A DNA stretch of 64,000 bases. It comes from an uncultured virus (IMG/VR IMGVR_UViG_3300018878_000142). Its lineage: Duplodnaviria > Heunggongvirae > Uroviricota > Caudoviricetes. Of the stretch, positions 26,559-64,000 are shown one piece after another. The notes under the pieces were generated by a model. That model searched no databases. It saw nothing but the letters and a program-made list of their open reading frames with translations, and was not told the origin of the DNA. Both the position numbers and the translations under genes were made by a program. The stretch lies in IMG/VR virus record IMGVR_UViG_3300018878_000142; one strand, written 5' to 3'. Positions within the stretch are counted from its first letter, which is position 1, and each line of letters opens with the position of its first letter.

Positions 26559-26604
26559 CATGCTAAATTAAGTAGTGCAACATTATTTAAGGGAAGAAGT
26601 AAAG

Positions 26605-44191: not shown

Positions 44192-44251
44192 GTTAAATCT
44201 CAGCTTTTTCCTTATAAAATAGTTGATTATTAATTTGTATTATAGTATAAT
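44183..44251 (+). promoter_or_regulatory. terminator plus sigma70-like promoter
   Basis: AAAGCTGAG...CTCAGCTTTTT; TTGATT (44223) -17bp- TATAAT (44246). Confidence 0.75.
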
Positions 44252-44398
44252 TATAATGTAAAAGAATCTAAAAATTAAATTTATAATCGCTTAAACTAAA
44301 TTACATTGCTAAATTAAATGTGAAAAATAAAATACATAATAGCTCTAACTACACTACGTTAAGGAAGAGCTTAAAAATAAAAAAGGAATTTTATAGTT

Positions 44399-45643
44399 AT
44401 GAAAATGAAATTTAAGCTTACAGAAGAAAAGAATGTTAGCAAGACTAGTTGGATAGCATCTGATTATAAAAAACTTGCAAATCTTGATGAAAGTGCAGTT
44501 GTAGCTAAAGAAGATATTGATAGCGATGTTGTAAACAAAGTTGCAGCTAGAAATTATCTTGAGAAAGAAGAAGTAGTAGAAGCTATTTTAGAAGAGAAGG
44601 AAACGCTTACGGAAGCTCCATCTATAGGTGATTCTGCAGAATAGGAAGTAGCTAAAAAACTTGATGCAGAAGTTGTTGATGATGAAGATGATGTAAAGAA
44701 AGAATTAGATAGAGCTTTAGCTACTGCTAAAAGATTACAAAAACGTGGTAAAAAAGATGGTTACTCAAATATTCTTTTAGTTGGCGAGGCTGGTACTGGT
44801 AAAACATCACGTTGTAAACAGTGGGCTCAAGAACGTGGTGTAAATCTATATGTAAGAAAAGCGATGGACCTTGATGTAACAGATATGGGTGGTGCTATTA
44901 CTCCAGATAAGGAAGGGAAGAAAGTTAATCGTCTTACTTCTAGCGAATGGGATCCACTCGATAGACCTAACTCAGTTTTATTCTTAGATGAGTTAAATAG
45001 AGCTGCTCCAGATGTTAGAGGTCAATTACTTACTCTAGTTAACAACCACACTGTTTCAGATATTCATAGTGAGTCTGGTGAAAGATTCCTTCCTAACTTC
45101 CTTTTCACTATTGCAGCTATCAATCCATCTGGCGCTGATTATGAAGTTGGTGAGCTCGATGATGCTGAGTATGATAGATTTAAAGAAGTAGATGTTGTAG
45201 CTAATAAACGCAGTCTTCTTAAATATATGATTTCTTCTTTTGATAAAGATATTGCAGCTAGCACTGATGAAGAAGATACTAAAATATTAAAAGGTCAAAA
45301 GCAACTCGCTGTTACTTTATTAAGTCATAAAGATTTCAAATTTGATACTTTAGCAGATAAAGCAAAAGCAAAAGATAATGGTCAACGTAAGAGCTTATCA
45401 CCTAGATCTTTTGAAGCAGCCATAAACAATTGTGATGGTACCAAAAATGATTTATTAGCTGTCTGGGGAAGCAACTGCGGAATGTCTTCTAAAGCTATGG
45501 TAGAAAGAATTCTTAAAGATTATAAAGATATTGATGATAAAGCAAATGACGCACTTAAAGGTGGAACAGAATCAGAGGTATTTAGTACAGCTAAACCTTT
45601 AAGCTCAAGATTAAGAGATAGATTGGCTTCTCAAGGTAATTAA
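44399..45643 (+). CDS. MoxR/AAA_5-like AAA+ ATPase (1 in-frame TAG at 44642)
   Basis: Walker A GEAGTGKT in the gap between the two tracked ORFs, Walker B LFLDELNRA, AAINP, LDDAEYDRF, SPRS. Confidence 0.9.
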
Positions 45644-45670
45644 TAAATACTAGTTGGAGGTATAGCATAT

Positions 45671-47221
45671 ATGATGACAGCAACAGAGCTAGCAGCTAAA
45701 AGACAGTTGCTAGACATTCTCAACAAACAGGGCTATCCAACATATTCTAGATTACTCGATCATTTTCATATAAACCTTACTAATGACCCCGAAGTTATTG
45801 CTTTTATGGAACCTGGTAAAGGTAGAATAGTTTTAAATAGAGGTTTAGACTTAGAGCAAGTTTCTATGATTGTTAGACATGAAATATTGCACGAATATTT
45901 ATCTCATCAATTACGTATGGAAAGACATAAAGGTAAAGATAAATGGGATAAACGTACACCTCAAGAGCATGAAAGAGCTAATATGGCTGCTGACTATGAA
46001 ATCTCAAATAGAGGTTATACTGATGCAGATAAAATAACTGCTAGAAGTATTATGCTTAATGGTCAGCTTTTGCAAGGCTTAGTTACTGATATAGATCATC
46101 CAGATTGGGTAAACCTTTCTATGGAAGAGATGTATGACTTGCTTGAAAAAGAAATGAAAAATGAAAAGCAAGAAGCTGGTAAAAAGATTGTCAGAATCGG
46201 AGATAAAGGTGATCAAGCTACTCAAGATGCAGAAGCTGCTCAAAGAGAAGCAGAAGCTATCATTGATGATGCTGACGAAATAATTATGGACCCATCGGCT
46301 TCGCAAGAAGAAAAGAGCGAAGCAGAGCAAGCTAAAAAAGTAGCTCAAGCGGCAAAAGATCAAGCAAAAAAAGCTGGCGAGCAAGCTCAAGCAGAAACTC
46401 AATCTGCAGATGATCAATCTGATGCAGATAAACCAGCAGAAAATAATAATGATAGCTCTTCTAAAAATAATCAATCAGCTAATCAAGATGGACCTGTTTT
46501 TAGTAAAGATACAGAAGGTAAGTTAGATAAGATAGCTGAAAGAATAGCGAGAATAAATAAAGCTTTATCTGATGTTCAGCTAGGTGATAAAATAAAAGAT
46601 GAGACTGCTAGTCAAATTGAAAGAGAAAAACAAATAAAAATAGCTAGAGAAACAGCTAAGTTTAGAAATGACCCATTAAGACGTTTTGTAGATTCGCTTA
46701 ATCAATTTATAAGAAAAGAAGTTGGTGTTGGTAGAGGTAAATCTTATGGTAGAATAAATAAGACCTATGCTAACACTCCGATTATCAGAGCTGGAATAAC
46801 TAGAAGAGCTGAACAACATATTCCGCTTATAAATGTTTATTTCGATGCATCAGCATCATGGGACGAAGCAAAAATTGCAGTAGGTAAACGTGGTGTAGCT
46901 ACACTTAATCAATATGTTCGTCAAGGTAAACTTAAAATAAAAACATATTATTTTGGTGACCATGTATCTGAAAAGAGATCGGAAGTTTCTGGTGGTGGGA
47001 CTGGAGCTATTAGAGAGATTTTTCAACATATAAAAGATACTAAAGCAGATAATGTTGTTATAATGACTGATGGTGATATGGATAATCAAGGTGGATCTGT
47101 TTCAATTCTAACTGTTCCTGGGGCAGTTTGGTTTTTATTTGTAGATGATGATTGTGATAAATTAAAAGATAATTTACATGGGCAAAAATTAACTAAAGAA
47201 TTTTTCATAAAATCAAAATAA
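45671..47221 (+). CDS. HEXXH metallopeptidase-like plus vWA domain protein (DUF2201-like architecture)
   Basis: RHEILH...NMAADYEIS; acidic linker; DASAS, GGGT, MTDGD. Confidence 0.8.
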   Translation: MMTATELAAKRQLLDILNKQGYPTYSRLLDHFHINLTNDPEVIAFMEPGKGRIVLNRGLDLEQVSMIVRHEILHEYLSHQLRMERHKGKDKWDKRTPQEHERANMAADYEISNRGYTDADKITARSIMLNGQLLQGLVTDIDHPDWVNLSMEEMYDLLEKEMKNEKQEAGKKIVRIGDKGDQATQDAEAAQREAEAIIDDADEIIMDPSASQEEKSEAEQAKKVAQAAKDQAKKAGEQAQAETQSADDQSDADKPAENNNDSSSKNNQSANQDGPVFSKDTEGKLDKIAERIARINKALSDVQLGDKIKDETASQIEREKQIKIARETAKFRNDPLRRFVDSLNQFIRKEVGVGRGKSYGRINKTYANTPIIRAGITRRAEQHIPLINVYFDASASWDEAKIAVGKRGVATLNQYVRQGKLKIKTYYFGDHVSEKRSEVSGGGTGAIREIFQHIKDTKADNVVIMTDGDMDNQGGSVSILTVPGAVWFLFVDDDCDKLKDNLHGQKLTKEFFIKSK

Positions 47222-47232
47222 GGAAGATAACT

Positions 47233-47895
47233 ATGCATTTAACAGACGCTTTGCAAGATGAAATGTTTATACAAAATTTAGATAATCAGAACTTCGAAGC
47301 ATGTTATGAAACGCTAGAAGAAACTGAAAGGTATTAGCTAGCTTTATTTTTAGCAGAAGAAGGTCTAGATCCATTAAAAGATCTAGACTATATTCCTGAT
47401 GTTTTATTTTCACATTTATCTTTCGAAACTTTTAATATTCCAGATAGAATTAAAAAGATAGGTAAGCATTCTTTTTCACATAATGATGACCTTGAGTATA
47501 TAACCTTACCAGATAATATTGAGCTTATAAAATCTTATGCTTTTTATAATTGCAAAAATCTAAAAGAAATAAATATACCTCAAAAAGTTAAAAAAATAAG
47601 TTTCTTCTGTTTTGGTGATTGCGAGAGTTTAGAAGAACTAACTTTACCCGAAGGTATTAAAACCATTGAGCCATGGGCTTTTTCATCTTGCTTAAATCTT
47701 AAAAAGATCTATCTACCAAAATCTTTAGAGCAAATAGAGGCAGCTGCTTTTAATGGTTGTAAAAACTTGAAAGATATTTTTTATGCTGGAACGATAGAAG
47801 AATGGAAGCGAGTATTTAAGGGTAAATCTATTTTTAGAGATGTACCAACTAGACTGGCTAAATGCTCTGATGGTAAAGGTTTGTTGAGGTAGTAA
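47233..47895 (+). CDS. shared-N-module protein with BspA-type LRR (TAG-recoded)
   Basis: IPDRIKKIGKHSF, LPDNIELIKSYAFYNCKNLKEINIP, LPEGIKTIEPWAFSSC; YAGTIEEW cap. Confidence 0.85.
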
Positions 47896-47899
47896 TATA

Positions 47900-48556
47900 A
47901 TGCATGAAAATATATAGAAAAAATTAAATTGGTATCTAGATAATGAAACTTTTTGTGACCTTCTAGATAAGCATAATGTGGTAGATTTATTTGCGGGAGT
48001 TGATGAATTCGATATTCCATGGCTTATAGATATACTAAAAGAAGAAGGTGTACAAGTACCACAAACATATTTAAATATGTATGATTTATCTAGATCACAA
48101 TGTCCTGTTTTTTCTAAAGTAAATATACTAAATCAAGAAGAATTAGGTTTTAATCTAGAATTACATCTAACGCCTGATTCTCTTTTTATTATAAAACTAA
48201 TTAATTTAATCTATTATAAAAATCATTCTGGATTGTTTAATAACATAGATAATCTAGAAACTTTTGGGGATGTTTTACTTTTAAATGATTTTAATATAGA
48301 ATATGCTAGTATCTGTATTATTTTAGATAAGCCCTTAGATCCAACTAATATAACAGGATATAACTTACCAAAAGTGCGGATAGTTATAGATGGTTTAGAT
48401 ACTATTCTAAGTTTTGAAATTTATGATAGATCTTTTTATGATGCAACTAGTGATTTTGAATTTGATGAAACTGGTTATAGTTATAAAGTAAACATAAATA
48501 AGTTTATACAATCCCTTAATGAAGCATTCGAGTTTATAAACTCTATGAGTATATAA
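47900..48556 (+). CDS. shared-N-module protein (TAG at codon 6)
   Basis: MHENI[TAG]KKLNWYLDN aligns with ENIQLRLNKYLEN of the next gene. Confidence 0.8.
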
Positions 48557-48566
48557 GGATTAATAT

Positions 48567-49208
48567 ATGTTTAATATAAATAATGAAAATATACAATTGA
48601 GATTAAATAAATATCTAGAAAACGAAGAGTGGGTAAATGCTTTAGATTCTTTTGATCTCGAAAAAGTATTTAAGTTATCTAGTGTAGTAGATTATATCTG
48701 GTTATGTCATCTCTTAGAGGAAGAAAACTTAGAAATACCTCATATTTATAATAGATTTAAAGATATTAAAATACAGCATGTAGATAAAAACTCTTTCAAA
48801 TTATATCAAGACGTAAGCTCTAGAGAAGATGGGCCTATGTTTGAGTATGAAGTTAATTTAAAATCAAAAGCAGAAACATTAAAACTTTTACATCTAGTAT
48901 ATTTTACTGATTTATTAGATGATTATATCTATTGCTGTGATTTAGATTTAGAAACTGATATAGAAATACAAAATATAAATCAAGCATGGTTTGCTGTAGA
49001 TAGTTACACAATAGACATTGATAGATTTAATGATTTAAATGCTTATAGTAATATAAAATTACATTGCTTAATAAAAAATTATATGACTACTATAATTATT
49101 CCAGATAATAAATCTTTCTATAAACATAAAGGGTCTTATTATACAGTAGATAAAGAAGCTCTCATAGATGCAATTAATAATTTTATCGATGAGTTAAATA
49201 GGTGGTAA
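48567..49208 (+). CDS. shared-N-module protein
   Basis: ALDSFDL...LLEEENLEIP. Confidence 0.8.
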   Translation: MFNINNENIQLRLNKYLENEEWVNALDSFDLEKVFKLSSVVDYIWLCHLLEEENLEIPHIYNRFKDIKIQHVDKNSFKLYQDVSSREDGPMFEYEVNLKSKAETLKLLHLVYFTDLLDDYIYCCDLDLETDIEIQNINQAWFAVDSYTIDIDRFNDLNAYSNIKLHCLIKNYMTTIIIPDNKSFYKHKGSYYTVDKEALIDAINNFIDELNRW

Positions 49209-49210
49209 TT

Positions 49211-49825
49211 ATGGATATGACTATTGAAGAATTATTACTCAGTGAAGATGGAATTAAAGCTATAGACGAGGAAAACTTTATAAAAGCTTATGACTTGCTT
49301 GAAGAATTTGAAAGACCTAAACTCACCAAGTTATTTTATAGTGAAAATATTGATCCATTAAATTATATGTGTCTTATTCCTAAACGTTATATGGATAAAA
49401 GTTTCAATAAAAGATTGATACGTATTCCAGAAAATATAGTTTTAATAAGCCAGGAAGCATTTATAGGATGTGATAACATTTGTCAAATAGATTTTTCAGA
49501 AAGAATAACTCGGATAGGTATGTTAGCTTTTTCTGATTGTACTAACTTAAAAGAATTAACTTTTCCTAGAAGTCTTGAAGTATTAGATCAATGGGCCTTT
49601 ACTGGTTGTAAAAATCTAAGAGAAATTCATTTCGAGAAAGATTATTTACGTTATATAAGTAATTATGTATTTGGTGAGTGCTCTCAGTTAGAAATAATAA
49701 CATATACTGGAACTATTGATGAGTGGCGAAAAATAGATATAGCAGGTGACGCTTTTAAGGGTGCTAGGACAAAAAATGTGCGATGCGCAGATGGCATATT
49801 TTCTATTTATGAGGATGAGGACTGA
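49211..49825 (+). CDS. shared-N-module protein with BspA-type LRR
   Basis: IPENIVLISQEAFIGC, RIGMLAFSDCTNLKEL, YTGTIDEW. Confidence 0.85.
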   Translation: MDMTIEELLLSEDGIKAIDEENFIKAYDLLEEFERPKLTKLFYSENIDPLNYMCLIPKRYMDKSFNKRLIRIPENIVLISQEAFIGCDNICQIDFSERITRIGMLAFSDCTNLKELTFPRSLEVLDQWAFTGCKNLREIHFEKDYLRYISNYVFGECSQLEIITYTGTIDEWRKIDIAGDAFKGARTKNVRCADGIFSIYEDED

Positions 49826-50499
49826 TGAGTCAAAATACAAATAAAAAAACTGTAGAGCTTCTAAATAAATGGTTAGCTAAACCAGATATAATAGCGTTAA
49901 TAGATGCAGGAAATATAAAAGAAGCGATATTAAAAACATTATAGCTTCCAGCATTTGATATTAATGCTATTAGAGCTTTATTAGGATTATTTTTAGCAGA
50001 AGGCTATACCTTAGTAGACTTAATTGCAAGACCTTCTGTAAATATACCTTTAGTAGAAACAGCAGACGTACAGCTAGAGAATAATGGAGAATATAAAGCA
50101 TTAAGTGTTAGATATGCAGCTGATGTAATGAGTGATCCAGAATTAAATTTATTTTTAACACTGCTTCATGGAATAAAATATACTGATTGCAAATTGCATT
50201 TTTGGATTTATGCTCCAGATGATTCTAGAATTTATCCAGAAGCATTTCTTTATTGTGATTCATTATTTGTGACAAGAAATTATGCTATAAAAGATATAAC
50301 TGATGAGATATCTGATTATATAATCACATATCCAGATAATACTTACTCCGAGGATGAATCAGTTACTGTATATGATATAGATGGAAGAGAAGACACTGCT
50401 CATGATATTTTAGAGCAACAACTTAACATACATATATCAGAAGCGTGGCACGAAATTTTTGAAAAGAATAACTATAGAGATTTAGGAATAGTTTTATGA
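49825..50499 (+). CDS. shared-N-module protein (1 TAG)
   Basis: ATG 49825 in frame with ORF 50128; LIDAGNI...FLAEG. Confidence 0.75.
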
Positions 50500-51008
50500 G
50501 CACATATTTAACTACTTATGAGGAATATCAATTTCAACATGTTTTGTTAGATAATTATCCAGAATTATTTGACACATATCAGTTTGAAAAAATATATGAG
50601 TTAGCTACAGAAAAAGGTTTAGGTCAAGACCTTATAGCTAAAATTTATCCTCTCATGTTAGATTTCGGAGTAAATGTTTTAGATCATATTAAAAATGTTC
50701 CTGAACATTTTGGTTATAATTCGGATATTAAAGAAATAAGATTTCCAAACAATGTAGAAAAAATCTTGCCTTATGCTTTTATGGGTGCTGACTTAGAAAA
50801 AATTATAATAGAAAATCCAAATATTAAAATAGACGATGATGGATTTAAATGGTGTGAGAAAATAAAAGAAGTTATTTATAGTGGTACATGTAAGCAATTT
50901 CATGACAACAGATTAAGTGCTGCTTTCACGCAGTGGACAAATGAGAATTTACTTATTAAATGTACAAATGATAATATAATTTTTAACTTAAAAGGATCTA
51001 AAAGATGA
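50496..51008 (+). CDS. shared-N-module protein with short BspA-type LRR
   Basis: FPNNVEKILPYAF, IDDDGFKWCEKIKEVIYSGT. Confidence 0.8.
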   Translation: MSTYLTTYEEYQFQHVLLDNYPELFDTYQFEKIYELATEKGLGQDLIAKIYPLMLDFGVNVLDHIKNVPEHFGYNSDIKEIRFPNNVEKILPYAFMGADLEKIIIENPNIKIDDDGFKWCEKIKEVIYSGTCKQFHDNRLSAAFTQWTNENLLIKCTNDNIIFNLKGSKR

Positions 51009-51613
51009 GAGCTGATGTAAGCGAAAAACTTAATAAAATGCTAGAAGATTCTGATTGCACAGGTTTTTTAGATTCTGGTGAAATATTAAAAGCTTTAGAG
51101 CGAGCTATAAGTAAACAATATTTTGAGCTAGAAGACTTATATGATATAGTCAGAGAATTAGTTTTATGTGATGTTCCATTAAAAGATATTTTTGGTGAAC
51201 CTAAAACAGAATTAACATTAAGAGTTAATTTTGATGCTGATGATCAACACGGTGTTGCTGGTCATGCTGTATATTGTTTCGATCCAATGCCATGCAATAA
51301 AGAAACTTATATCTTATTAGCTTATATGTTTGGTTATGCGTCTATCTACACTAGTAAATTATTTGTTTTAGATTTACCATCAAATGGAATAACTTCTGGT
51401 AGGTTTAAAATTTTTGAAGATGATAACTTACTAGATCAATTTCTAGTAGATAAACAAAAATTTTCAGTTGTTTTAGCTGGTGGAACAGACCTTGATCCAG
51501 TTTATGAACTAGATGGAAAAGTTTCAAAAGCTAAAACATTAGTATTAGATACTCTTGATTCTGCTATAAAAGAGTTTTACGAAGATCATGTAGAGACTAA
51601 TAGGTGTATATAA
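51005..51613 (+). CDS. shared-N-module protein
   Basis: LNKMLE...FLDSGEI. Confidence 0.7.
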   Translation: MRADVSEKLNKMLEDSDCTGFLDSGEILKALERAISKQYFELEDLYDIVRELVLCDVPLKDIFGEPKTELTLRVNFDADDQHGVAGHAVYCFDPMPCNKETYILLAYMFGYASIYTSKLFVLDLPSNGITSGRFKIFEDDNLLDQFLVDKQKFSVVLAGGTDLDPVYELDGKVSKAKTLVLDTLDSAIKEFYEDHVETNRCI

Positions 51614-51628
51614 GAAAGGAAAGATAGT

Positions 51629-52066
51629 ATGGCTATAACTAAAGAATAGTTAGAAGAATATTTATATGAGATTTCTGATGATTTAGATGAAGGAAACTTA
51701 GATAAAATTTATTAGCGTAATGATCCTAGAAATGAGTGGTTAACTGATGAGCTATATTATATGGGAATAGACCCACTAGATGGGTTACCCTGGGTTTTAA
51801 ATCACATAGCTGAAATGGAGTTAGCTATATAGCCAGAAGAAAGCACTTCTTATAATGGAGCTACTCTAGATTGGCTTATAGAAGGTTTTGGCAGCTCAGC
51901 TTATAGATATTTATATTTGTATCAATTTAAGCATAACCCAGTATTTAAATGTGAAAGATTAGAGAAGAGATATAGTTGGTGTCAAGATAATGATAATGAT
52001 TACTATATATGTCTTGCACAACATTGGGATATAGATAAATTTAAAGAGATAGTAGATGGTAAATAA
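51629..52066 (+). CDS. shared-N-module protein (3 TAG), paralog of next gene
   Basis: LDEGNL...GIDPL; C-terminal WLIEG..YLY..LEKRYSW..YIC..WDIDKF. Confidence 0.8.
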
Positions 52067-52077
52067 GGAAATATATT

Positions 52078-52536
52078 ATGTTAACATTATCAGAAATAAT
52101 AGATAAATTTGCTGAGTAGATTGATAATGATCAATTTGAAGAGATTTTAAAAAGCAGTGATTTAGAACTAGTAGATAAAATTGACTTCGTTGATTTCTTA
52201 TACGAAGAATTAAAAAGTCTAGGTAAAAGTTTATACTCTTATTTTCCTAATTTTGATAGAGAAATAAATGCTATGAGTAATCAGCTACAAACCTTAGCTA
52301 CAGGTGCTAGTTATTGGGGTGAAAGATTGTGGTGGCTAATAGAAGGTGAGGGACAGGCTCATAGAGCAGCTTTATATCTACATTACTATCAAAATGATTC
52401 ATACTATTTGGTAGAGAATCTAGAGGAAAAATATGCGTGGTATGGCTCAGGTGATGATTGGTATATTTGCAGAGCTGATAGATGGGATATAAATAGATTT
52501 TATAGGGCTATGGATGCTTGCTTAGCCGAGGAATAA
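52078..52536 (+). CDS. shared-N-module protein (1 TAG)
   Basis: IDKFAE[TAG]IDNDQF; C-terminal WLIEG..LYL..LEEKYAW..YIC..WDINRF. Confidence 0.8.
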
Positions 52537-52538
52537 AG

Positions 52539-52940
52539 ATGAAATTTCGATTAGTAGAAGATATAGTAACAGAATCAGATTTAACTGATAAAAATTTAAT
52601 AAAAGAATTGCAAGATAAATTTGGATCAGATTTCGATAGCAAACCTTTATGCAAAGAAGTTACAGAATATATCTCTACTAAATTTGGTGTAAAAGGTTTA
52701 TATTATACTGTACTAGTCCTATCAAAAGAAGATGGATTAATATCAGCAAATGGCCACTGTGTAATTTATCATAATAATAGACTTTATGACTACACATCAA
52801 ATCAATATTGCAATTATTCTGGAATAGAAAAATCAGAATGTCCCAGAATATTGTATTTCGATAAAGAAATATCAGATAAGCTAGGTATGAAATCATACTC
52901 AAGCGGTAATTATATAGTTTGTGTATCGGAGCATGTATGA
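52539..52940 (+). CDS. hypothetical protein, possible Cys-His-Asp papain/transglutaminase-like fold
   Basis: LCKEV...GHCVI...LYDYTSNQY; MKFRLVE leader. Confidence 0.45.
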   Translation: MKFRLVEDIVTESDLTDKNLIKELQDKFGSDFDSKPLCKEVTEYISTKFGVKGLYYTVLVLSKEDGLISANGHCVIYHNNRLYDYTSNQYCNYSGIEKSECPRILYFDKEISDKLGMKSYSSGNYIVCVSEHV

Positions 52941-53581
52941 CAGAATTAGATAAAGCTTTAGATGAGCTACTTTCAAATAATGATTTCTCAACAGCTGTAG
53001 ATAGCGGTGATTTAAATACTGTTTTAAAAATATTATTTAATTCTAGGACTTCTGGGATAGTTGAGCATTTTATAGATATTATAATTAATGAGGATTCTGA
53101 TTATTTTAATAGAAACTTACTTAATGATGCAACTAGATTATCACCAGATGATATAAGCAATAAATCTAACAGATACTCTGGATTAGATATTGATAATAAA
53201 AGATTCTCTGATAACTTAAAAATATTGCATGCTTTAAGATCAGTAATGATACCTGAAGGTAAAGCTGAAATAAACAGCGGTATGAAAGATACTGATTGCT
53301 ATGTATATTTTTATACTACTGTAAATATATAGTTAAGTAAGTTGCAACTTTCGGAAACTTATTTGAGAATACCCTTTGTGGGTGGAGCTTTAACTTATGG
53401 GTATATAATTCCAACAGAGAATTGTTATTCTAAAGTTGCATATGGTGTTTTTCAAAACTTACCTAAAGAAGATCAACATCAAATTGCTAGTTATTTATGT
53501 CAAAGTATAAATGCTTTCTATGATTTCGCTGTAGATACTGTAAGATCCTATTTAACTAGTAGAATTAAGGATAAGAAATGA
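52937..53581 (+). CDS. shared-N-module protein (1 TAG)
   Basis: AVDSGDL; ORFs 52919 and 53342 joined across TAG 53330. Confidence 0.75.
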
Positions 53582-54192
53582 TTGACTTAGAAGATTTTAT
53601 AATAAAGTATCATGCTCAAATAGATTCTGGTGATACAGAAACATTATGCGAATTAATAGAAGATAATTTATCTACTGATGATGCTGCTGAATTTATAAAT
53701 ATGCTTTTAGAAGAAGATTTTGATATAATAAAACACTTGAAAGACATTTATCCAGTATCAAAAATATTTAATGAGTTTGTATTTATAGAAGATTTTCAAG
53801 AAAGTATTTATAATGATTTTATTAAACCACTAAATATTCCAGAAGATAGAGATGCTAAAAAATTTGGAAGATATTTGCTTAAGAATTATGCTAGTACTGG
53901 ATTTGATATACATAATCCAAACAGCGTCAATGCTGGCGAATTAGTCGGTGATATTTGTGCATTACATATTGCACCATATTTATATGAAAACTCACTATTT
54001 GCATTATTATGTGTAGAAGATGAAAAAGCTCAATCATTCGAGTTATTAAAATATTTTCCAAATAACACTATGTTAACTTTTTATAGTAAAATCGGCTATG
54101 GTTGTGATCCAGATAATATAGATAAAGAATTTGAAACATTACAAAAATAGATGAACGAGTTTGTTTCAAAATATAATGCAGAGAGTAATTAA
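53578..54192 (+). CDS. shared-N-module protein (1 TAG)
   Basis: QIDSGDT...MLLEEDFDII; extends past TAG 54148 to TAA 54190. Confidence 0.75.
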
Positions 54193-54193
54193 T

Positions 54194-54799
54194 ATGAGAC
54201 TAACCGAATTTATAGATACTTATGCAGAGCTTATAGATTCTAAAAATACTTATGATCTTCTTTTTTATGCTAATATGAACTTAAGTGATGAAGATATAAG
54301 TAAACTCACTAGAGAGCTTGACATACTAGGATTAAATATGCTTGAACACCTCAAAAAAGATAATGATGAGGTAAGATTGTTTAGTGATGATTTTACTTTA
54401 AGGGATTTGCAAGAGTATCTAAATAAAAATTTTAAACTAGAAGTAGATATAAGAGATTATTCTAAATATAACTTAAATGATATGTTTGAGCTTCTAGAAA
54501 AATACCGAGATGATTTAGATATTACCATCTCACCTTCTAATTTAGAGCCATTTTAGTATATTGATCTATATTTAGATAAAATAATAATATCAGTGATTGT
54601 TACTGAAGATACACATTATATAAATGTGAGTTTTATAACAACCACAAATTTGTTTTATAAGATAAATCTAGATTTAGAGCATGATGCATTTTCATTAAAC
54701 AGCGCAGTTGGTTATACTTTAAATAGAAATACTCTAAAAGATACTCTAGCTAGCGTGGCTGATGCATTAAAAGATTTCTTTAACTCACATTTAGCTTAA
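54194..54799 (+). CDS. shared-N-module protein (1 TAG)
   Basis: FIDTYAELIDSKN; two tracked ORFs joined across TAG 54554. Confidence 0.75.
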
Positions 54800-54811
54800 T
54801 AAGGATTAATT

Positions 54812-55435
54812 ATGACTATAGAACAATTTATAGAAAAATATGAAAACCTTTTAGATAGTAAACCATTAGATACAAAGCATTTGTGTATTGCTATTTTAAG
54901 TGATTTAAGTGATGTCTATACATATGATTTCACTCAAATGCTTCTTGAGTCTAATGTTGATATTTTAAGTTGGTTAAAACCAGATTTCAAAGAAGTAAAA
55001 TGCTTTAATAGAGATTACTCAGTATTTAAATTTGATGATTATTTGATAGAAAATGCTTTTGTAACTTTAGATGAAGATTTTTATTCTAATTATAGTTTAT
55101 TTAGTGTAATAAATTTATTAGATGACGCTAAAGCAAGTTTAAATTTACGAAATAACAGATACACAATGCCTGTTAGATCTTTTACTAATGCAAAATTTAA
55201 GTCTGGGTGTATAGGTATATTTAGGGATGATTCTAATTCTCCACCCTGTACTATTGTATTGCGTTTATAGGCTGATGATCAAACAGTTTACGAGTTAGAG
55301 CAATCAATACCAACTAATGTTTTAAGATATCTTCCAGGAATTGGCTTTGGGCTAAACTTGCGTGAGCTAAGATAGTTACTCATTGATTTAAATGATAAGA
55401 TTACGCGCCTTATACAAACAAATTTAATAAGGTAA
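54812..55435 (+). CDS. shared-N-module protein (2 TAG)
   Basis: FIEKYENLLDS...MLLESNVDIL; extends to TAA 55433 just before a terminator. Confidence 0.75.
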
Positions 55436-55441
55436 AAATGT

Positions 55442-55478
55442 GGACATGAGAAATTAAAAATTTATCTCATGTCCTTTT
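55442..55478 (+). terminator. intrinsic terminator
   Basis: GGACATGAGA...TCTCATGTCC-TTTT. Confidence 0.8.
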
Positions 55479-55531
55479 ATTATGTAAAATGTGCGCTAAA
55501 TTATTTGTGCAATAAAATTTTGGAGAATATT

Positions 55532-56272
55532 ATGAAATTATTGAAAGAAGAATTTGAAATACATGAAACATTAAATAAAAAACTATTTGACGAAGATCAT
55601 ATTCTCCGCAAAGATGTAAGAAATACCTTAATGAAAATAGCTGACATGTTTGTAGGATCTATGCAAGAAGATCAAGTACCACTAAAAGTATATGATTATT
55701 GGTTGGTGGGTTCTAATGCAGCTTATAATTATACACCAACTTCAGATATAGATATACACATTATAGTTGATATGGATATGGGTGTCAATCCTTATATTCT
55801 TAGACTTCTTTATGATTATATCAAGAGCAGCTTTAATGATAAATATGATATTAAAGTAAAAGGCCACGAAGTAGAACTATACTTAGAAGATATAAATACT
55901 AGCGCAGTGACTAATGGTATATATTCTCTAAAACAAAATAAATGGATTAAAGTTCCTATTCAAGAAGAGCCTAAGAAAATAAATATAGAAGATTCTCAAT
56001 TATATAAAGATGCATACAAAAAATATCAAGAATTAAAAGATGATGAAATCGAAAAATTTATAGATGATATGTATGTTATGAGAAAAATAAGTTTAGCTAA
56101 TGATGGTGAGTTTGGCGAAGGTAATTTAGTTTTCAAAGAATTCAGAAATAAAGGCTATCTTGATGATTTAAAAGATAGAAAATACGCTTATAAGAGTAAA
56201 GAATTAACTTTAGAGAAATTAGCTATTTCTTCTGCTACGCTTGATGGTGAGGAGACATGTAATGGATTTTAA
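55532..56272 (+). CDS. Pol-beta superfamily nucleotidyltransferase
   Basis: GSNAAYNYTPTSDIDIH...VELY. Confidence 0.8.
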   Translation: MKLLKEEFEIHETLNKKLFDEDHILRKDVRNTLMKIADMFVGSMQEDQVPLKVYDYWLVGSNAAYNYTPTSDIDIHIIVDMDMGVNPYILRLLYDYIKSSFNDKYDIKVKGHEVELYLEDINTSAVTNGIYSLKQNKWIKVPIQEEPKKINIEDSQLYKDAYKKYQELKDDEIEKFIDDMYVMRKISLANDGEFGEGNLVFKEFRNKGYLDDLKDRKYAYKSKELTLEKLAISSATLDGEETCNGF

Positions 56273-56897
56273 TAAAATATTAAATGATTAGAAAGCTATT
56301 GATGCATTAGATCGAGAAAATTGGAGTATATTTTTTAATCAAATTAATTCTTTAGACTTATCGAGAGAAGATTTTTATGAAATACTTAAATTGATAGCAT
56401 CTGAAGCATCCGATCAACTTTGTAATTGGGTTAACAATCTTAAAATCACAGTAACTAATTAGGATATCACATTTATTAGATCACATTGGTCTTATGGAAT
56501 TGAAATTACAGATATAACTATTTCCCATAAACTTAAATGGTTAACTTTTTTACATTCGGTTATGTTTTCCAACACAAGGTTTGGAGGATGGGCGGATAAG
56601 GATACTCGGGAAAAAATTCAAGGATTCTTTGACAAGAAATCCTTAGGAGATCCTTGTTCTGGAAATGGAGAGTTTTAGTCTATTTATTTATATGTTGAAA
56701 TTCCTCTTGATAATTACTACAATCAAGTAGAATATTAGATACGGCTTTCAGAGCGGTATTACTTTAATGGATCATCTCTATGCGGAGTTCCTAAACATCT
56801 TTTAAGTGATGTTATTAATCAGATTAATAAAAAAGTAGATAATTTAATAACTAAATTAATTGAAAAAATAAATCAAATTAAATATGAAAATAATTGA
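56262..56897 (+). CDS. shared-N-module protein (4 TAG)
   Basis: ALDRENW; open only with TAG readthrough; fills the gap between flanking genes. Confidence 0.75.
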
Positions 56898-56909
56898 AGG
56901 TAATTAATC

Positions 56910-57449
56910 ATGACTCTCGAACAGGCATTTGAAAATGATGAATTTAATTTAGCTCTAGATACTCATGATTTTCCTAAAGCATTTTCTTTTTTGGGTTATA
57001 CGGATGCGGATGAAGAAAGAGAAAAGTTATTTTTACTAATTTAGGAAGAAGGTTTAAATCCTTTATCCGGATTTACTATAATTCCTAAGCAGTTTTTAAA
57101 AACATGTTCAAAAATAATTGAGATCGAAATACCGAATAGCGTAACATTAATAGATTCAAGGGCATTCTGGTGTTGTCGAAGCCTGACAAGTGTAGTTATC
57201 CCTGACGCTGTAATAGAGATAAGTGATCAAGCGTTCTCTGAGTGTAATAAGTTAGAAGATGTAGTAATCCCTGATAGTGTAAAAATTATAGGTAGTGGAG
57301 CGTTCAAAAGTTGCTATAGGTTAGAAAGCATTAAGTATAATGGAACTAGAGAGCAGTGGAGAAATATATCCCACAGAGGTTCTATGTTCGGATATTCTAG
57401 TGAAGGTTGGAGTAAAATAATCTGCACAGATGGGGTTATTGAATTATGA
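56910..57449 (+). CDS. shared-N-module protein with BspA-type LRR (1 TAG)
   Basis: EEGLNPL; IPNSVTLIDSRAFWCCRSLTSVVIPD, IPDSVKIIGSGAFKSC, YNGTREQW. Confidence 0.85.
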
Positions 57450-58132
57450 CATTAGAACAATTTATAGATAAATATTTTAATTATATAGATAACTTAAAAT
57501 TTAAAGACTTACATAAGCAGTTAGTAGACTCAGAAGATATTTTTAAGTTAGAAGATAATGTAATTGAAAATCTGAACAAACTATTAATAGAAGAAGTTGG
57601 AATTGGCTTATTGTACGAAGCAGAAGAAGACTCTAATTATGTTATTATAAAGAATCAATATTGCGAAGATTTATGTACACGAAATAACAGCCCGTTTGTT
57701 TATAAATATACAAACAGAATAGATAAGAGCAGAAGTACTTTAGCTTTGTTTAATGATCTAATTGATTCTGATATTCATACATTGTTCGATTATATTGTAG
57801 ATTCTGATAATGATAAAATTAATGTATCTGACGCTAGAAGCATATTAGGTGATTATTCCAAAACCAAATCTTTAGAATTATCTATGGATTACAGTGGTGG
57901 ATTATTTTAGATAGTCTTGAGTTTTCTTTTTACATATGACGATTATGGAAATTTTAATCCTAGTATAACAAATAACATCTGCTTTATTATTAATTTACCG
58001 CAAAGTTTCGGTTACAGTTTTAGTAAAAGTTACTACGACTCGGCTGAAAATACTTATGCTATAAATGATACAGCGATTGATACTTTAATAAAAGAGATAG
58101 ATAAAAGAGTTTTAGGAGCACTAAATAAATGA
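57446..58132 (+). CDS. shared-N-module protein (1 TAG)
   Basis: MTLEQFIDKY..YIDN; joined across TAG 57908. Confidence 0.75.
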
Positions 58133-58686
58133 AATTAGTAAATTGTTTTAATAATGATACATTTATTGCGAATTTAGACGCTCACAATATAGGTACATGC
58201 TTCTTCATAGTTGATATAGAAGATAGATATAAATTCTTTTCTCTTTTATTAGAAGATTCTGAAACTTCTGAAGAAGTTAAACAATGGCTTATCGATAATA
58301 TCCATGAAGCAGATATATCAATGTTAAATACTACCCCAGATTGGCAGCATGAGTATTCTATAATTGATAGGAAAGTTATTAAGACTGTAAATATATTAAT
58401 TTCACTTAATTATGCTTTATTGAAAAATTATAAAGAAGTTGCTGATTATAAAATAGTAGATGGCAAAGTTTTTGATACACCAATAGATAATATAACATTA
58501 TCGATAGATGATCTAAATGTACCAGATCGCTTAACTGCATGTCTTTTTGGAAAAGATTTTATATATTGTGAGTTTGCAGATGTGGTAACAATAGATATAC
58601 ATAATATGACAGATGATGATTTCTAGATAGAGTGTGTTAATTTTTTGAATACGTTTATTAAAGTTTTAGCTGCTGGATTATTTTAA
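58129..58686 (+). CDS. shared-N-module protein (1 TAG)
   Basis: FIANLDAHN...LLLED; extends to TAA 58684. Confidence 0.7.
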
Positions 58687-58700
58687 GGGTATGATGACAT

Positions 58701-59114
58701 ATGAAATTTAAACTAGTAGAAAAATTTACAATAGAAGCGTGGCAAATAAAAGATGATGTTGTGATAAAAGGGACACTTTTTAAAGCTAATATTGAGTTAA
58801 ATAATTAGCAATTCTTTTCATTCGATCAACCTGATGGAAAAGTTTATTGGATAAAAGGGTTAGATAATTGCTGCATAATATTTAAAGCTATCACACCTAC
58901 TATTAATCCTGGCTTTATACATCAAGAATTTGAAAGAGAAATCCAAAAATATAAACCTATAACAGAAGCTAGTTTTACAGCATATGTAGATGCTAGAGGT
59001 GAGTTTGCTATTGAATTAGATTCTATTTTACATAATAAAGAATTTAAGTCTTTTGCTAGAGACTTGAAATTAACTATAGAAGATTATTATATATAGCCGG
59101 ATGATGATTATTGA
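58701..59114 (+). CDS. hypothetical protein with MKFKLVE leader (2 TAG)
   Basis: Open with TAG=Q to TGA 59112. Confidence 0.7.
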
Positions 59115-59132
59115 TGCAAAAGGAAATTATAG

Positions 59133-60140
59133 ATGAAATTATTAGAAAAAATAGATTTAGATTCTTTAATAGATTAGAATATACATCTTATAGATACTGG
59201 TGATTTTGAAAAATTTTATGATATATGTAAAGCATAGCTTAAGCGAAAAGATTTAATTCTTCTTACAGATTTATTAGCAGAAGAAGGTATCGAATTACCA
59301 TATTCTATTACAGGGTTTTTGTATGGAGTAAAAACATCAAGTCATACTTTAGCTTTAAGAGCACTTATTAGTCCAACAATGTATAATGTAGGTTTCACAT
59401 CAAATCAAGGTATGAAAGGTGGACATCAGATTGGCTTTGAGTCAAGAAAAGCTGCTTAGAATTATATAGATAACAATTTTGGTTCTGCTAGAGTATCGAT
59501 AATTCTTCCAGAGACTGTTGCAGGTTATAATTGGAAATAGATAGAAATTCCAGGCAGCATAGCATTTGCAACAACATCAGCTATAAATTCTTTCGAACCA
59601 TATATGGATCCAGATCAAAAGAAAATAAGCAGATTAAAAAATAGATATACTAATGAAATAAATAAACTTGAAAAAGAAATCACAGCACCTGAGGAAACAG
59701 AAGATGTAAGAAATTTAACTGCTGATAAAAATACAGCTATCGCAGAAGAAATGTTAGAAAAATTAAGAAAATATGTTGAGAATACTCCGGAAGAATATTT
59801 TGTAGATCCAACCCCTGTGCGTCGTGAATTGTCTTTACTAGATGTTAAATATTTAATATCATATTGCATATCTGTCTTCCGTGATGATATACGCATTAGT
59901 TTATATATAGAATTTAATTCTGATAAATTTGCTAAAAAATTCGAGTCAGGACTTAAAAAAGTCTTTCTAGATAGCATTTATTCGATTGAGTTTAGACGAG
60001 AGTTTGTAAATGCTAACAAATACTGGATAAGAATATCAACCCCATACCTTATAGACTCGACATCACCAGAAGCGCTTGCTATAATAGATAAGAAAACTAA
60101 AAAAGTAGAGTTGCTAAAACAAAAATTAGCAGCTATATAA
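59133..60140 (+). CDS. shared-N-module protein (4 TAG)
   Basis: LIDTGDFEKFY...LLAEEGIELP; in frame with ORF 59604. Confidence 0.75.
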
Positions 60141-60160
60141 TATGAGAAGGAAAAATAACA

Positions 60161-61534
60161 ATGGCGGATAAAAATATTAATGTTATTTTATTAAATAGAC
60201 ATGATACCGATGATAACTGGGCTAATTCTAAATATCAACCTAGAAATGGTGAAATCATTGTTTATGATAATTCAGGTAGGCTAAAAGTTGGTAATGGGAG
60301 TGCTACTCCAGATCAGCTTCCATTCCTTGATAAAAACTATTATTTGACATTGAATGGTAATAGACTTATTTTTTCTAATGATGGGGTTGGTGCTGTAGCA
60401 ACCGATATAACATTACCAGATAATGATACTCTTTATTATGCTAAAGCAAACGGTGGCTTAGTCTTAGATTCTGATACAAAAGAATTTAGTCTAGGTAATA
60501 GCGGTGTAATAGCAGGAACTTATGAGCCTGACTCAACAAAACGAACACCACAGCCTGGTGGAATATTTACTGTACCTAGATTTGTTGTAGATAGTCATGG
60601 TAGAATTACAGAAGCTGGAACTGTTGATATAACTCTTCCTATAGATAATGACTCAAAAGCATCTTCTGGAGATACTTCTGAGAAAATATATCTCATAGGT
60701 ACAGCTGAACGCTCAGAAAGTGGTCGAATAACTTACTCATATGAAAATGCTTATGTGCAAGATGGTTATGTTTACAGTGGTGGTAAAAAGGTTTTAACAG
60801 AAGAAACTACTTTAAGTAAGGGAACTGATTCTACTAGTACTGATGAGATCGGTCCTAGTGATTCATTTACTGCTGTTGAAAGTGTTGCTGTAGATAATCA
60901 TAAAATAACTGAAACAAAAAAGACTTATACAATTAAGCCGGAAACTCAATTAAGCAAAGGTACTGCAGCAGAAACAGATGGATCAACTTTAACTTTTGGT
61001 GGTGATTTAAGTGTTATGGATAACACAACTGTTTCTAATCACATTATTACTGATCATAAAGTAAAATATAAATTACCTAGTGAAACAGCTATAAGTACTT
61101 CTGATGCTACTGGAACCGCAGAAACGCCTGCTCATGGTGATTCTATTACTGTAGTCACAAATGTATCGAAAGGCACTGGTAGCCATAATATATCTGTTGA
61201 GAAAACTAGTATAACATTACCTACAGCACCAGGTGTCGCAGTTTCTGATAGTACTGCTGGAACATAGACACCAAAACATGGTGGAACTTTTACAGCTATA
61301 AGTGAAATAACAGCTGATGGTCATGGTATAAAGAAAAAGACAACAACTTATACACTTCCAACAGAGACAACAGTAACTATTAGCACAGCTAAAGCTGGTA
61401 CAGCTACAGAGTTAACTCATGGAAACACTTTTGAAGCTATAACTGGAATAGAAGCATCTGGACATACTGTAACACCAATTGTTACTACTTTCACGCTCCC
61501 ATCAGGTGTAGACGATGGTGAGTTAACAGAATAA
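60161..61534 (+). CDS. tail fibre-like protein with Thr-rich repeats (1 TAG)
   Basis: Hyaluronidase/Mtd-N-like start (GEIIVYD..RLKVGNG..QLPF), VDSHGRIT, repeated HG..F/I..H.I....Y/FTLP units. Confidence 0.75.
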
Positions 61535-61618
61535 CTAAACATAAAATTAAATAATTAAAATAATAACCTCTAGATAATAAGCTAAATTATTTAGAGGTTA
61601 CTTTTATGGGGGTATATT

Positions 61619-62230
61619 ATGAATAAAGCAGAAGCTGAAATATTGGAAAATTATCTTAAAGATGCTAAGTATTGCGAAGCTTTAGACAATAAGAAATATG
61701 GTAGATTATTCTAGTTAACTGACGAAGAAGACTTGCATTTACTTATTGAGCTTCTAGAAGCTGAGAATGAGGATATTCCAGAAGAATCTATTTCTGATTT
61801 ATTTTCTGATTATAAAGATTTTATGTTAGACCGTAAATATAGCTGGGATGTATATTTTGATTTATTTATGGGTTTTCCTTATGAGCAGCAATATGATTTG
61901 AGAGATTATGATATTTCAAGAAATCTTTTAGATGATATAGCAAAAAGTCTGCACGAAGATAGAGTTTTCGATAATGTAATTAATCATGCTGATAACTCAG
62001 ATATCCCATATATAATGTCTATTTCAGCTAGAATAGTTGAAAACGATGATTTAATTATTTACTGCTATGTTATAAGCGAAACAGGCGAAGATTTAGTAGA
62101 ATTAAAACGTGCTTTACCTACTTATAAATATTTCAAAGGTATACCATATGTAGGCTATGGTTATAATGAGTCAGCTATAAAGAAAATTATAGAAGCGGTG
62201 TTTACTAAAGTAGGAAGATATTTGGGGTAA
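61619..62230 (+). CDS. shared-N-module protein (1 TAG)
   Basis: LENYL...ALDNKKY...LLEAENEDIP. Confidence 0.8.
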
Positions 62231-62234
62231 TCTT

Positions 62235-62873
62235 ATGCAATTAACTGATAAACAAAAAGAAGTATTAAATAGATACCTCACAAAAGATGATTGGGTAAAA
62301 GCTTTAGATAGCAGAGATTATTCTGAGTTATTAAAATTAACAGCTACATATCATATAAATCTAGTAGCTTAGATGCTAGAAGAGCTAGAGTCACCAATAC
62401 CTAGAGATGAGATAAGAAAATTATTTGTTGGCTTTACTGGGGTACATTTTGAGCCAGAATATGATAATATTGAGTATGCTGATATTTTAGTAGATGATAC
62501 TAAGAGAAGAATTAAAGTTAAAATTCCTAAAGCAAAGCTAGAGAAAAATATTGATAAGTTAGTTAGAAGAAATATAATTGCTTATTATTCTTTTGCGTAT
62601 GAAGATTCTCTAGATTATGTTGAAAATAAATATTTAGATGATATATGCACTGTTGTTAGTTATGTTTATGTAACAATAGGTGGTGATCTAGAATTTCATT
62701 TCGATTTAATAGATTCTAATGGTATAACACATGCTACTTTGCAAGATGAACATCCAGCAGCACCTTTCTTTATTGGTGTAAATGGAATTGGCTACGCTAC
62801 AAACTTAGATGAAATAGTAAAATATGCGGAAAAGCTTTTTAAAGATTGTTTAAAAGTACTTTTGGAGGATTAA
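62235..62873 (+). CDS. shared-N-module protein (1 TAG)
   Basis: LNRYL..DDWVKALDSRDY...MLEELESPIP. Confidence 0.8.
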
Positions 62874-62874
62874 T

Positions 62875-64000
62875 ATGGTTGATATAATTAAAGCTGTTAA
62901 AGAAAAATTTAATGCTTCTAATTATCCAGTATCAGGACCTACATATATTCTTCCCGATGGATCATTTTTAGATATAGCTGGAACTTTTGATCCTAAAAAT
63001 AGTTTTGAAGATTTTCCATGTCATGCTGAAGTAGAAGGTTTTCTTTTAGATATTGGCTTATCTAATCAAGTAGTAGATGTATCAGGTAGCCCTACTTTAG
63101 AAAGCTTAGGTGCTATAAGATGTAATGACTTAGCGGATAATAATTTTGTTCAATTAAGCAATATAAGACCCACTTCTGATTAGTATGAAAGTTTGGAAAA
63201 TTGGATATATGAAAATGCTACGCATAGAAGCGAGCTTATAGTAGCTACACCTGAATTTATTCAATATAAAAAATATGATCCAGAAGATGTTGAGTACATT
63301 ATCAAAAGAATAAAAAGATACTATACATCAGGTACTTTATATGAGAGTAAATGTAGCATATCTTATAAAGATATTTCAGACCTCGATCGCTATAAAAAAT
63401 CTGCAAATGAGATTCTTGGCGGTTGGGGTAGCCAATCTGATAATGGAATATTAGATAATACTAAAGAAATATATGTAGATGATAAATTAGTTGGTTACAT
63501 AAGTTTCGAAGAATTTGATGATATCGAGGGTTATAATAAAGCATTAGGTTTCGGCAACTTTATGATTTTAGATAGAGGTAAAGGTTACGGAACATAGGTT
63601 TTAAAAGATTTAATCCAAAGATATAGAGATACTTTTGATCTTATTTATTGTTTTGTAAATTCTGATAATTATGATGCTATAAAACTTTATAAAAAATTAG
63701 GTAAAGTGTATGATGAAGATGGGCCTAATGATGATAATCAATATTATGTAACTTTTTGGGATAATAAATATATGTCAATTAATGAAAATGTGTCAATAAA
63801 AGAAGCTAAAAAGAAAAAGAAGAAGAAAAAAGCTTTAGGCTGGTGGCAAACTTTTACACCTGATGCTGGTAATGTACTGTTTAATAATGCGTTTTTCAAT
63901 CATGCAATGGGAAACACAACAACAGATGAGTTTGTTGCAGAGGCTGGCGAAGCTTTAGCTGGTGATTGTGGCGCTGGTTTAGGTGAGTCCTTACAAAAAG
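62875..64000 (+). CDS. multidomain protein containing a GNAT acetyltransferase; runs off window (2 TAG seen)
   Basis: LVGYI...RGKGYGT[TAG]VLKDL...VNSDNYDAIKLYKKLG. Confidence 0.8.

Follow-up and report, generated by a model that had tools for sequence, protein, structure and literature searches.

What joins a row of 20 small phage genes whose products begin alike and end differently, and what could so constant a beginning be for? The question is raised by a 64,000-nucleotide stretch of DNA from an uncultured virus of the Caudoviricetes, held in IMG/VR as IMGVR_UViG_3300018878_000142 and called here the window, in which positions 47233-62873 of the + strand form an array of such genes. The 64-kb window is given as one strand, 5' to 3'; coordinates refer to it unless a locus label precedes them, and array members are named by their start position (g47233 being the gene that begins at 47233). 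A preliminary description, made from the DNA letters alone, had proposed that the array proteins share a helical N-terminal module carrying exchanged C-terminal domains, as a docking tag for a repertoire of binders. The module proves to be a genuine common domain at the level of sequence, and the genes that carry it come and go between near-identical strains, while the part that it plays can be argued from analogy with the head proteins of other large phages.

A common N-terminal domain behind recoded stops

Gene calls with translation table 11 fragment 47233-62873 into short open reading frames (ORFs), whereas reading TAG as a residue yields an unbroken row of + strand genes. With TAG read in this way, ORFs are present at all 20 starts that the preliminary description had listed, and each is a real ORF start. 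In-frame TAG occurs in 16 of the 20 module genes, and falls inside the module itself in 10. Hence half of the N-termini are hidden under the standard code, much as had been claimed. Two IMG/VR records carry the same DNA (G001, 164,204 bp; G002, 102,762 bp), and the 35 tRNA genes of G001 include two with anticodon CTA, which supports TAG read-through; these two are adjacent (L030:7231-7321, 91 nt, and 7326-7403). That the inserted residue is specifically glutamine is an assumption of the translations used: the two tRNA(CUA) genes are no more similar to tRNA-Gln than to other tRNAs, and of 28 aligned positions TAG is matched by Q in 13, in database proteins that may themselves have been called with TAG as Q.

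All 20 proteins start with an acidic module, predicted to form four helices, which the profile always places with its start at residues 1-10 and its end at residues 43-60. In a MAFFT alignment of the first 80 residues the shared pattern opens with an L-x-x-h-L helix, continues with an Asp that never varies, set in (L/I)D-x-x-(N/D)-hydrophobic, and closes with L-x-x-LL-x-E-E-(G/N) about 20 residues after the Asp pattern; the preliminary description had already read these last two as (L/I/V)D-x-x-(D/N) and LL-x-E. The simplest alternative is that this likeness is merely compositional, arising from acidic proteins encoded in AT-rich DNA (GC content of the genome is about 30%), and that no module exists; two failures among the 20 leave-one-out tests would agree with it.

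Four observations stand against this alternative. Firstly, when hidden Markov models are built with one member left out, the omitted members score 5.9-36.1 bits, and 18 of the 20 score above all 200 shuffled versions of themselves; g57446 does not, nor does g50496, which aligns to g47233 in BLASTP from aa 9 on. Secondly, against the 456 six-frame ORFs of the window that are 50 aa or longer, the full profile gives the 20 members 37-59 bits and no other ORF more than 5.8 bits, so that a gap of about 31 bits separates the members from the other 436. Thirdly, all 36 sequences compared, the 20 array members and 16 external relatives, keep the Asp. Fourthly, AlphaFold 2 (AF2) models of two members, g56910 and g48567, contain the same helices (pLDDT 81-98). 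In g56910 these lie at residues 3-6, 10-17, 21-26 and 34-46, followed by leucine-rich repeats (LRRs), with an overall pLDDT of 93.2 and pTM of 0.88; in g48567 the module is modelled at pLDDT 81-95, and the C-terminal part poorly. The leave-one-out scores, the window-wide profile gap and the invariant Asp refute a compositional origin, to which we leave next to no probability. The doubt raised at the outset, that composition alone would remain once a shared profile was sought, did not hold, and on this evidence the module is confirmed as a common domain. Searched for similar folds, the g48567 model returned nothing usable (best Z 4.2), and VIA matches to alpha-solenoid pieces reached only Z 3.0-3.8.

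The module is absent as a recurrent family from Pfam and PHROGs: twelve weak Pfam families, none of them an F-box family, are each matched by one of the 20 modules at E <= 10, and PHROGs gives no match on the module. A profile search of 1.84 billion (1.84e9) representative proteins returns only 31 matches at E <= 1e-3, consisting of the window's own proteins, their close relatives and about 15 more distant proteins, nearly all from this phage lineage. In 30 of the 31 the module stands at residues 1-10 of a protein of similar size. The exception, P0021, is a 681-aa bacterial-type protein in which four TPR_4 repeats match profile columns 12-41 (E 9.5e-5). Because of this match, the module may contain a hairpin resembling that of tetratricopeptide repeats (TPRs), though itself without a match to TPR models (0 of 20 modules at E <= 10 in Pfam).

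When the profile is carried to the rest of the genome, as the preliminary description advised, G001 and G002 each contain these 20 copies of the module and no further ones. Among 50,697 phage records, neither tblastn of g48567 nor megablast of 24 kb finds a match. Scans of IMG/VR with the proteins P0009, P0020, P0013 and P0010 return no relatives, and a metagenome scan with P0009 returns one weak 2.3-kb locus (L023). The ESM Atlas gives no usable match to a whole member protein or to residues 1-62, and no description was found in the literature searched for arrays of this kind. G001 and G002 jointly span at least about 225 kb, their ends being without overlap. Judged by these searches, the family is new to the libraries covered, and specific to one lineage of phages that recode TAG, possess a T4-type head and measure at least 225 kb.

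Diverse C-terminal parts in a changing array

Behind the module, four of the 20 proteins continue into BspA-type LRRs, as had been proposed. Their matches to LRR_5 (PF13306; E-values in Table 1) score 37.8-126.1 bits against a cut-off of 27.7, and the other 16 proteins have no LRR match. Both Pfam score and modelled solenoid fold place the four in the BspA-type class: the g56910 model leads Foldseek to 4gt6 and to TpLRR 6mlx, and VIA aligns it to 4fdw with Z 17.3 (root-mean-square deviation 2.3, 120 aligned residues). The solved BspA-type LRRs belong to long bacterial cell-surface proteins, whereas those of the array are phage proteins of 170-220 aa with a helical N-terminal module.

The remaining 16 C-terminal parts fall into about 10 groups without detectable sequence kinship. 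BLASTP joins g47900 to g48567, g61619 to g62235, and g53578, g54194 and g54812 to one another; it also joins g51629 to g52078 (3e-13), the tryptophan-rich paralogs of the preliminary description, with 5 and 6 Trp. Leave-one-out profiles built beyond residue 60 fail in all 14 members that are neither LRR nor Trp-rich, none scoring above its best shuffle, and no match is found for the non-LRR members in Pfam, PHROGs or NCBIfam. Among 105 profile-profile pairs, 104 stay at a probability of 5% or less, and one reaches 53% (E 1.3e-4), relating the last 60 residues of the g61619/g62235 group to those of the g53578/g54194/g54812 group. Many non-LRR members are 185-228 aa long and end in a strand-G-Y/F-helix pattern. 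Proteins of matching length and lineage were the only ones in which the C-terminal parts of g52078 and g59133 turned up, in a search confined to that length band. The claim of unrelated C-terminal domains stands only at the level of sequence, apart from the single related pair, and a common fold among the non-LRR parts is possible.

DNA of the array is present in 24 listed sequencing runs, which belong to 15 studies of the faeces and gut of animals. Four runs whose word share was partial supplied contigs, which were aligned to 44001-64000 and show presence and bridging, not abundance. Flanking identity between strains is about 96-97% (in strain X8, for instance, 319 of 10,046 bases differ), and within these near-identical surroundings the array gains, loses and replaces genes. 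An X12 contig joins 48556 to 49192, so that g48567 is absent, and an X8 contig joins 59121 to 60161, so that g59133 is absent. Across 56217-57414, where g56262 and g56910 lie, X8 carries 595 other nt and X12 about 1193 unlike nt in place of the two genes, and 1132 nt are inserted between g58129 and g58701 in X8, X10 and X12. The most divergent aligned piece is the tail-fibre-like gene at 60161-61534, where 159 of 1445 bases differ (about 11%; its neighbours differ by about 3%).

The proposal of a constant module with diversified C-terminal parts is borne out by this turnover, and by the module being at least 5 points more conserved than the C-terminal part in 10 of 17 external comparisons (e.g. 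94% vs 68%, and 85% vs 52%). That the domains are swapped holds only in part. In a 55-column module tree, which is poorly resolved, most modules group by the type of C-terminal part that they carry (15 changes, vs 22.2 in shuffles); hence the history is mainly one of tandem duplication and divergence. A few placements, moderately supported, disagree with this pattern: the non-LRR g58129 lies inside the LRR-module clade (support 90/89), and the LRR protein P0023 groups with g54194 (94/82). Some C-terminal replacement is therefore likely to have occurred, and a single origin of the LRR fusion is possible, being compatible with the tree.

The same data bear on an explanation in which the module has no docking role, its helices being the slowest-evolving core, or the end cap, of a fast-diverging family whose non-LRR parts share a hidden fold. 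AF2 packs the module tightly on the LRR of g56910, and the similar lengths and shared ending of many non-LRR members, the likeness of two groups over their last 60 residues and the co-clustering of C-terminal types with modules are all as this would predict. Yet one and the same module is found on LRR and non-LRR bodies, and neither the failure of C-terminal profiles in 14 of 14 members, nor the 104 unrelated profile pairs, nor the greater conservation of the module in most external pairs is what a single diverging fold would lead one to expect. We consider a mere core or cap improbable.

Gene layout and genomic surroundings

The array is operon-like, being tandem, same-strand and tightly packed. 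Its 24 genes, 20 with the module and four without (Table 1), are spaced by -11 to +33 nt, with a single exception of 84 nt, and this gap contains a terminator-like hairpin (61564-61600).

Table 1. Genes of the array and the pair directly upstream. LOO, leave-one-out score in bits against the maximum of shuffles.
Feature	Position	Strand	Observations
Upstream pair	44399..47221	+	AAA_5 (MoxR-like) ATPase, 4e-9; DUF2201_N metallopeptidase-like, 3.8e-6; 11 nt before array
Module gene 1	47233..47895	+	Module aa 1-46 + BspA-type LRR; LRR_5 E = 1e-36; profile 48 bits; TAG at aa 35, 220
Module gene 2	47900..48556	+	Group A, orphan C-part; profile 59.6 bits; BLASTP to g48567 8e-8
Module gene 3	48567..49208	+	Group A; profile 55.8 bits; absent in strain X12
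Module gene 4	49211..49825	+	BspA-type LRR; LRR_5 E = 1.3e-23; profile 46 bits
Module gene 5	49825..50499	+	Group D; profile 40.7 bits; LOO 8.7 vs 5.4
Module gene 6	50496..51008	+	Short BspA-type LRR; LRR_5 E = 2e-9; LOO 5.9 vs 10.3 (fail)
Module gene 7	51005..51613	+	Group D2; profile 47.4 bits
Module gene 8	51629..52066	+	W-rich C-part; 5 Trp; BLASTP to g52078 3e-13
Module gene 9	52078..52536	+	W-rich C-part; profile 35.9 bits; C-part relatives 148-156 aa
Module-less gene	52539..52940	+	Starts MKFRLVE; no profile, Pfam, PHROG or NCBIfam match
Module gene 10	52937..53581	+	Group E; profile 46.9 bits
Module gene 11	53578..54192	+	Group C; BLASTP to g54812 2e-6
Module gene 12	54194..54799	+	Group C; BLASTP to g54812 3e-8
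Module gene 13	54812..55435	+	Group C; profile 44.2 bits
Module-less gene, nucleotidyltransferase-like	55469..56272	+	NTP_transf_2 1.4e-4; phrog_36119 5e-31
Module gene 14	56262..56897	+	Group F; profile 47.1 bits; replaced in strains X8, X12
Module gene 15	56910..57449	+	BspA-type LRR; LRR_5 E = 1.5e-22
Module gene 16	57446..58132	+	Group G; profile 38.9 bits; LOO 9.8 vs 10.5 (fail)
Module gene 17	58129..58686	+	Group H, LRR-type module on non-LRR C-part; BLASTP to g47233 aa 1-43 3.5e-4
Module-less gene	58701..59114	+	Starts MKFKLVE
Module gene 18	59133..60140	+	335 aa, group I; profile 48.2 bits; absent in strain X8
Module-less gene, tail-fibre-like	60161..61534	+	Mtd_N weak match, E = 0.0018
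Module gene 19	61619..62230	+	Group B; BLASTP to g62235 8.5e-9, full length
Module gene 20	62235..62873	+	Group B; profile 48.1 bits

A different N-terminal start, MKF(K/R)L(V/T)E, is common to the AAA_5 ATPase (44405) and the module-less genes at 52539 and 58701, and occurs in no other ORF of the 206 kb examined. In three other strains the acidic N-terminal region of this ATPase (44496-44860) is replaced by 375 unlike letters. Directly after the array stands a GNAT acetyltransferase-like gene (62875-64000 and beyond), with a run of eight Lys codons, which forms an A-rich repeat at 63801-63834.

The auxiliary genes upstream, all on the + strand, encode an RNA ligase, NAMPT, NAD synthetase, a PurZ-like protein, a kinase, and the AAA_5 ATPase with the DUF2201_N protein. 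The NAMPT gene (phrog_448 2e-122, solved NAMPT 6e-86) and that for NAD synthetase, at 20806-22137 and 23988-24788, form an NAD salvage pair, and the in-frame TAGs of NAMPT fall in a doubtful 5' extension. The PurZ-like gene (29694-30866) matches phrog_1211, "2-aminooxy adenylosuccinate synthetase", at 2e-50, a hint that 2-aminoadenine may stand in for adenine in the DNA of this phage.

In the other direction, the array lies just upstream of tail-fibre and head genes on the same strand. These include many tail fibres, a 1623-aa LRR_5-type protein, glycosyltransferases, Portal_T4 (1.3e-38), an S77 protease (Peptidase_S77, 3e-11), a Gp23-type capsid protein (Gp23, 1.6e-32) and a tail sheath. The 1623-aa protein (L025:344-5212, in G002), which stands among the tail-fibre genes, has phrog_14959 in front and BspA-type LRR repeats at its end. 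The S77 prohead protease (L026:4664-6202, in G002) has its domain at aa 35-170, a scaffold-like coiled-coil C-terminal extension of about 330 aa, and a TAG at residue 380. T4 gp23 is cleaved after an L-x-E site, and the capsid protein here has FLSEAFE in the corresponding N-terminal region.

Candidate roles of the module

The arrangement of one constant element on many variable ones suggests that the module would serve all members as a docking handle, and that the variable parts would be binding domains on which diversifying pressure acts. The reading that we favour, at a probability of roughly 0.35, takes the module for a docking domain, or one of capsid targeting, borne by a variable set of proteins that are packaged and delivered to the next host. 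The module would bring the proteins to a T4-type prohead core, where the S77 prohead protease would possibly trim it; the proteins would be packaged along with the DNA, then delivered into the next host as a set of variable binders blunting its defences.

This packaging reading is put forward because two described systems offer an analogy. Firstly, the internal proteins of T-even phages are described as diverse defence proteins with only the capsid-targeting sequence in common (PMC3012670), and in T4 the internal head proteins all join the core through that sequence, which gp21 removes (PMC5694885). Like these T-even internal proteins (IPI-III and relatives), the array proteins are small, diverse and fast-evolving, with only an N-terminal element conserved, and like T4 the phage encodes an S77 protease with a scaffold-like tail, Gp23 and a Gp20-type portal. 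Secondly, Salmonella phage SPN3US has a family of 20 head-protein paralogs (family B), 17 of them in tandem, which were detected in the heads of tailless particles and are candidate ejection proteins (PMC5694885). That family (gp83, gp138-154, gp161 and gp237) and the array are alike in having some 20 paralogs each, in being laid out chiefly as a single tandem run on one strand, and in belonging to phages whose genomes exceed 200 kb and encode a prohead protease like that of T4; the SPN3US members compared also show a conserved N-terminal stretch.

Several points weigh against packaging. The T4 capsid-targeting sequence is a peptide of about 10 aa, whereas AF2 makes the element here a folded domain of four helices and 43-60 aa, packed onto the LRR as one unit (pTM 0.88). 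The T4 internal proteins also differ from the array in that the latter is one array of 20 genes, and no fixed cleavage site is evident at the module end: just half of the sequences (18 of 36) have (L/I/F/M)-x-E at profile columns 49-51, and this is a short motif, common in acidic helices. Conserved processing by the protease is therefore unsupported. Each member has an acidic pI (4.25-5.9). No homology to SPN3US family B is found: against gp138-154, gp160 and gp161 the module profile scores at most 1.1 bits, BLASTP gives E >= 0.053 and hhalign a probability of 0.1%, and the SPN3US proteins are larger (175-498 aa) and contain no LRR. The tblastn search of 50,697 phage records with g48567 was likewise empty, giving no sign of kinship with the T4 internal proteins. 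In four of the 17 external pairs it is the C-terminal part that is at least 5 points more conserved, and three more lie within 5 points. A complex prediction of the module alignment with residues 1-379 of the protease-scaffold protein scored 0.01 (mark 0.32), which counts neither way.

The timing of expression also bears on packaging. The array region has 6.0 in-frame TAG per 1000 codons, with at least one in 19 of its 24 genes, against 2.7 per 1000 codons in the remainder of the window, its upstream part (18 of 69 genes; Fisher p = 0.0016); in 54 downstream genes the density is 4.3 (35 of 54). TAG use in the array thus equals or exceeds that of the structural region. The densest genes in the window outside the array are a homing-endonuclease-like gene with 8 TAGs and an orphan 390-aa gene with 6 (26575-27657, 32718-33890). 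According to the preprint by Borges et al. (10.1101/2021.08.26.457843), recoded stops mark late structural and lysis genes in such phages, whose products cannot be made until the code has switched. By this yardstick the array behaves like late genes. Yet TAG enrichment is only a weak proxy for timing, since clearly non-structural genes hold TAG too, and this also counts against packaging. No enrichment of TATAAATA, the T4-type late promoter word, is seen in front of genes, a scan for sigma-70-like promoters gives 115 sites where 125 are expected, and none of the 24 listed sequencing runs with array DNA is an RNA run.

The read-through genes also matter for a second explanation, in which the products are cytoplasmic effectors of host takeover or anti-defence that are never packaged, and the module recruits variable target binders to one phage or host machine, making them substrate adaptors, for example for the AAA_5 ATPase and metallopeptidase-like pair. 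The array begins 11 nt after the DUF2201_N gene, itself placed after the AAA_5 ATPase; LRRs are protein-binding scaffolds; and acidic proteins that turn over between strains are typical of genes in an arms race. Adjacency alone is nonetheless weak, and the need for TAG read-through in 16 of the 20 genes argues against very early expression, if the code switch is late, as in the recoding preprint. Nor is any anti-defence family matched by the non-LRR members in Pfam, PHROGs or NCBIfam. We regard such adaptors as possible, though on balance unlikely.

The neighbouring fibre genes introduce a third explanation, that the proteins are accessories of the virion surface, exchangeable adhesins docked through the module on a tail fibre, the baseplate or the capsid, thereby widening adhesion. 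It is favoured by the tail-fibre-like gene inside the array and the many tail-fibre genes after it; by the LRRs of the 1623-aa protein, which match phrog_18805 and phrog_35892, as do the small LRR proteins of the array; and by the annotation of BspA-type LRR structures in the PDB as cell-surface proteins. But the module occurs in none of the fibre proteins, nor in the large LRR protein, its 20 copies in G001 and G002 being the only ones; and the array proteins are small, without sign of a trimeric fibre architecture, g56910 being modelled by AF2 as a compact monomer. We consider an adhesive role improbable.

Whichever role applies, the design recalls others outside the phage head. Polymorphic toxin and effector loci combine a constant N-terminal trafficking element with recombining C-terminal domains (PMC3482391). 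The array resembles these loci, and adaptors of the F-box type, in its constant N-terminal handle and variable C-terminal part. Unlike polymorphic toxin loci, it shows no toxin domain, immunity gene or secretion signal, and unlike F-box adaptors, it has no Pfam F-box or trafficking domain on the module. The view that this is not a described system therefore holds for the family, which has no library match, but not for the concept: that a large phage joins diverse cargo to one unvarying N-terminal handle is an idea already known, with the T-even internal proteins (PMC3012670) and SPN3US (PMC5694885) as precedents.

Returning to packaging, a bolder form is that the module is a new capsid-loading or docking domain, and the array a "cargo rack", a strain-specific, rapidly reshuffled library of about 20 binders, with LRR and orphan folds alike, that is packaged or displayed; whatever domain is joined to the module would then travel to the next host. 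This we think rather unlikely; if true, it would amount to a new way of delivering anti-defence proteins and, for large phages, a tag for protein packaging that is ready to use. If the module were a targeting handle, a T4-type head outside the T-even group would be loading variable cargo, and the module would serve as a portable tag for big capsids. Large phages are rich in orphan genes, and a family such as this is invisible to standard-code gene calling. Here one recognisable domain links 20 such orphans, reducing them to a single question, that of the module's partner. The gain and loss of these genes between strains suggests that the array is likely a front line between phage and host in animal guts.

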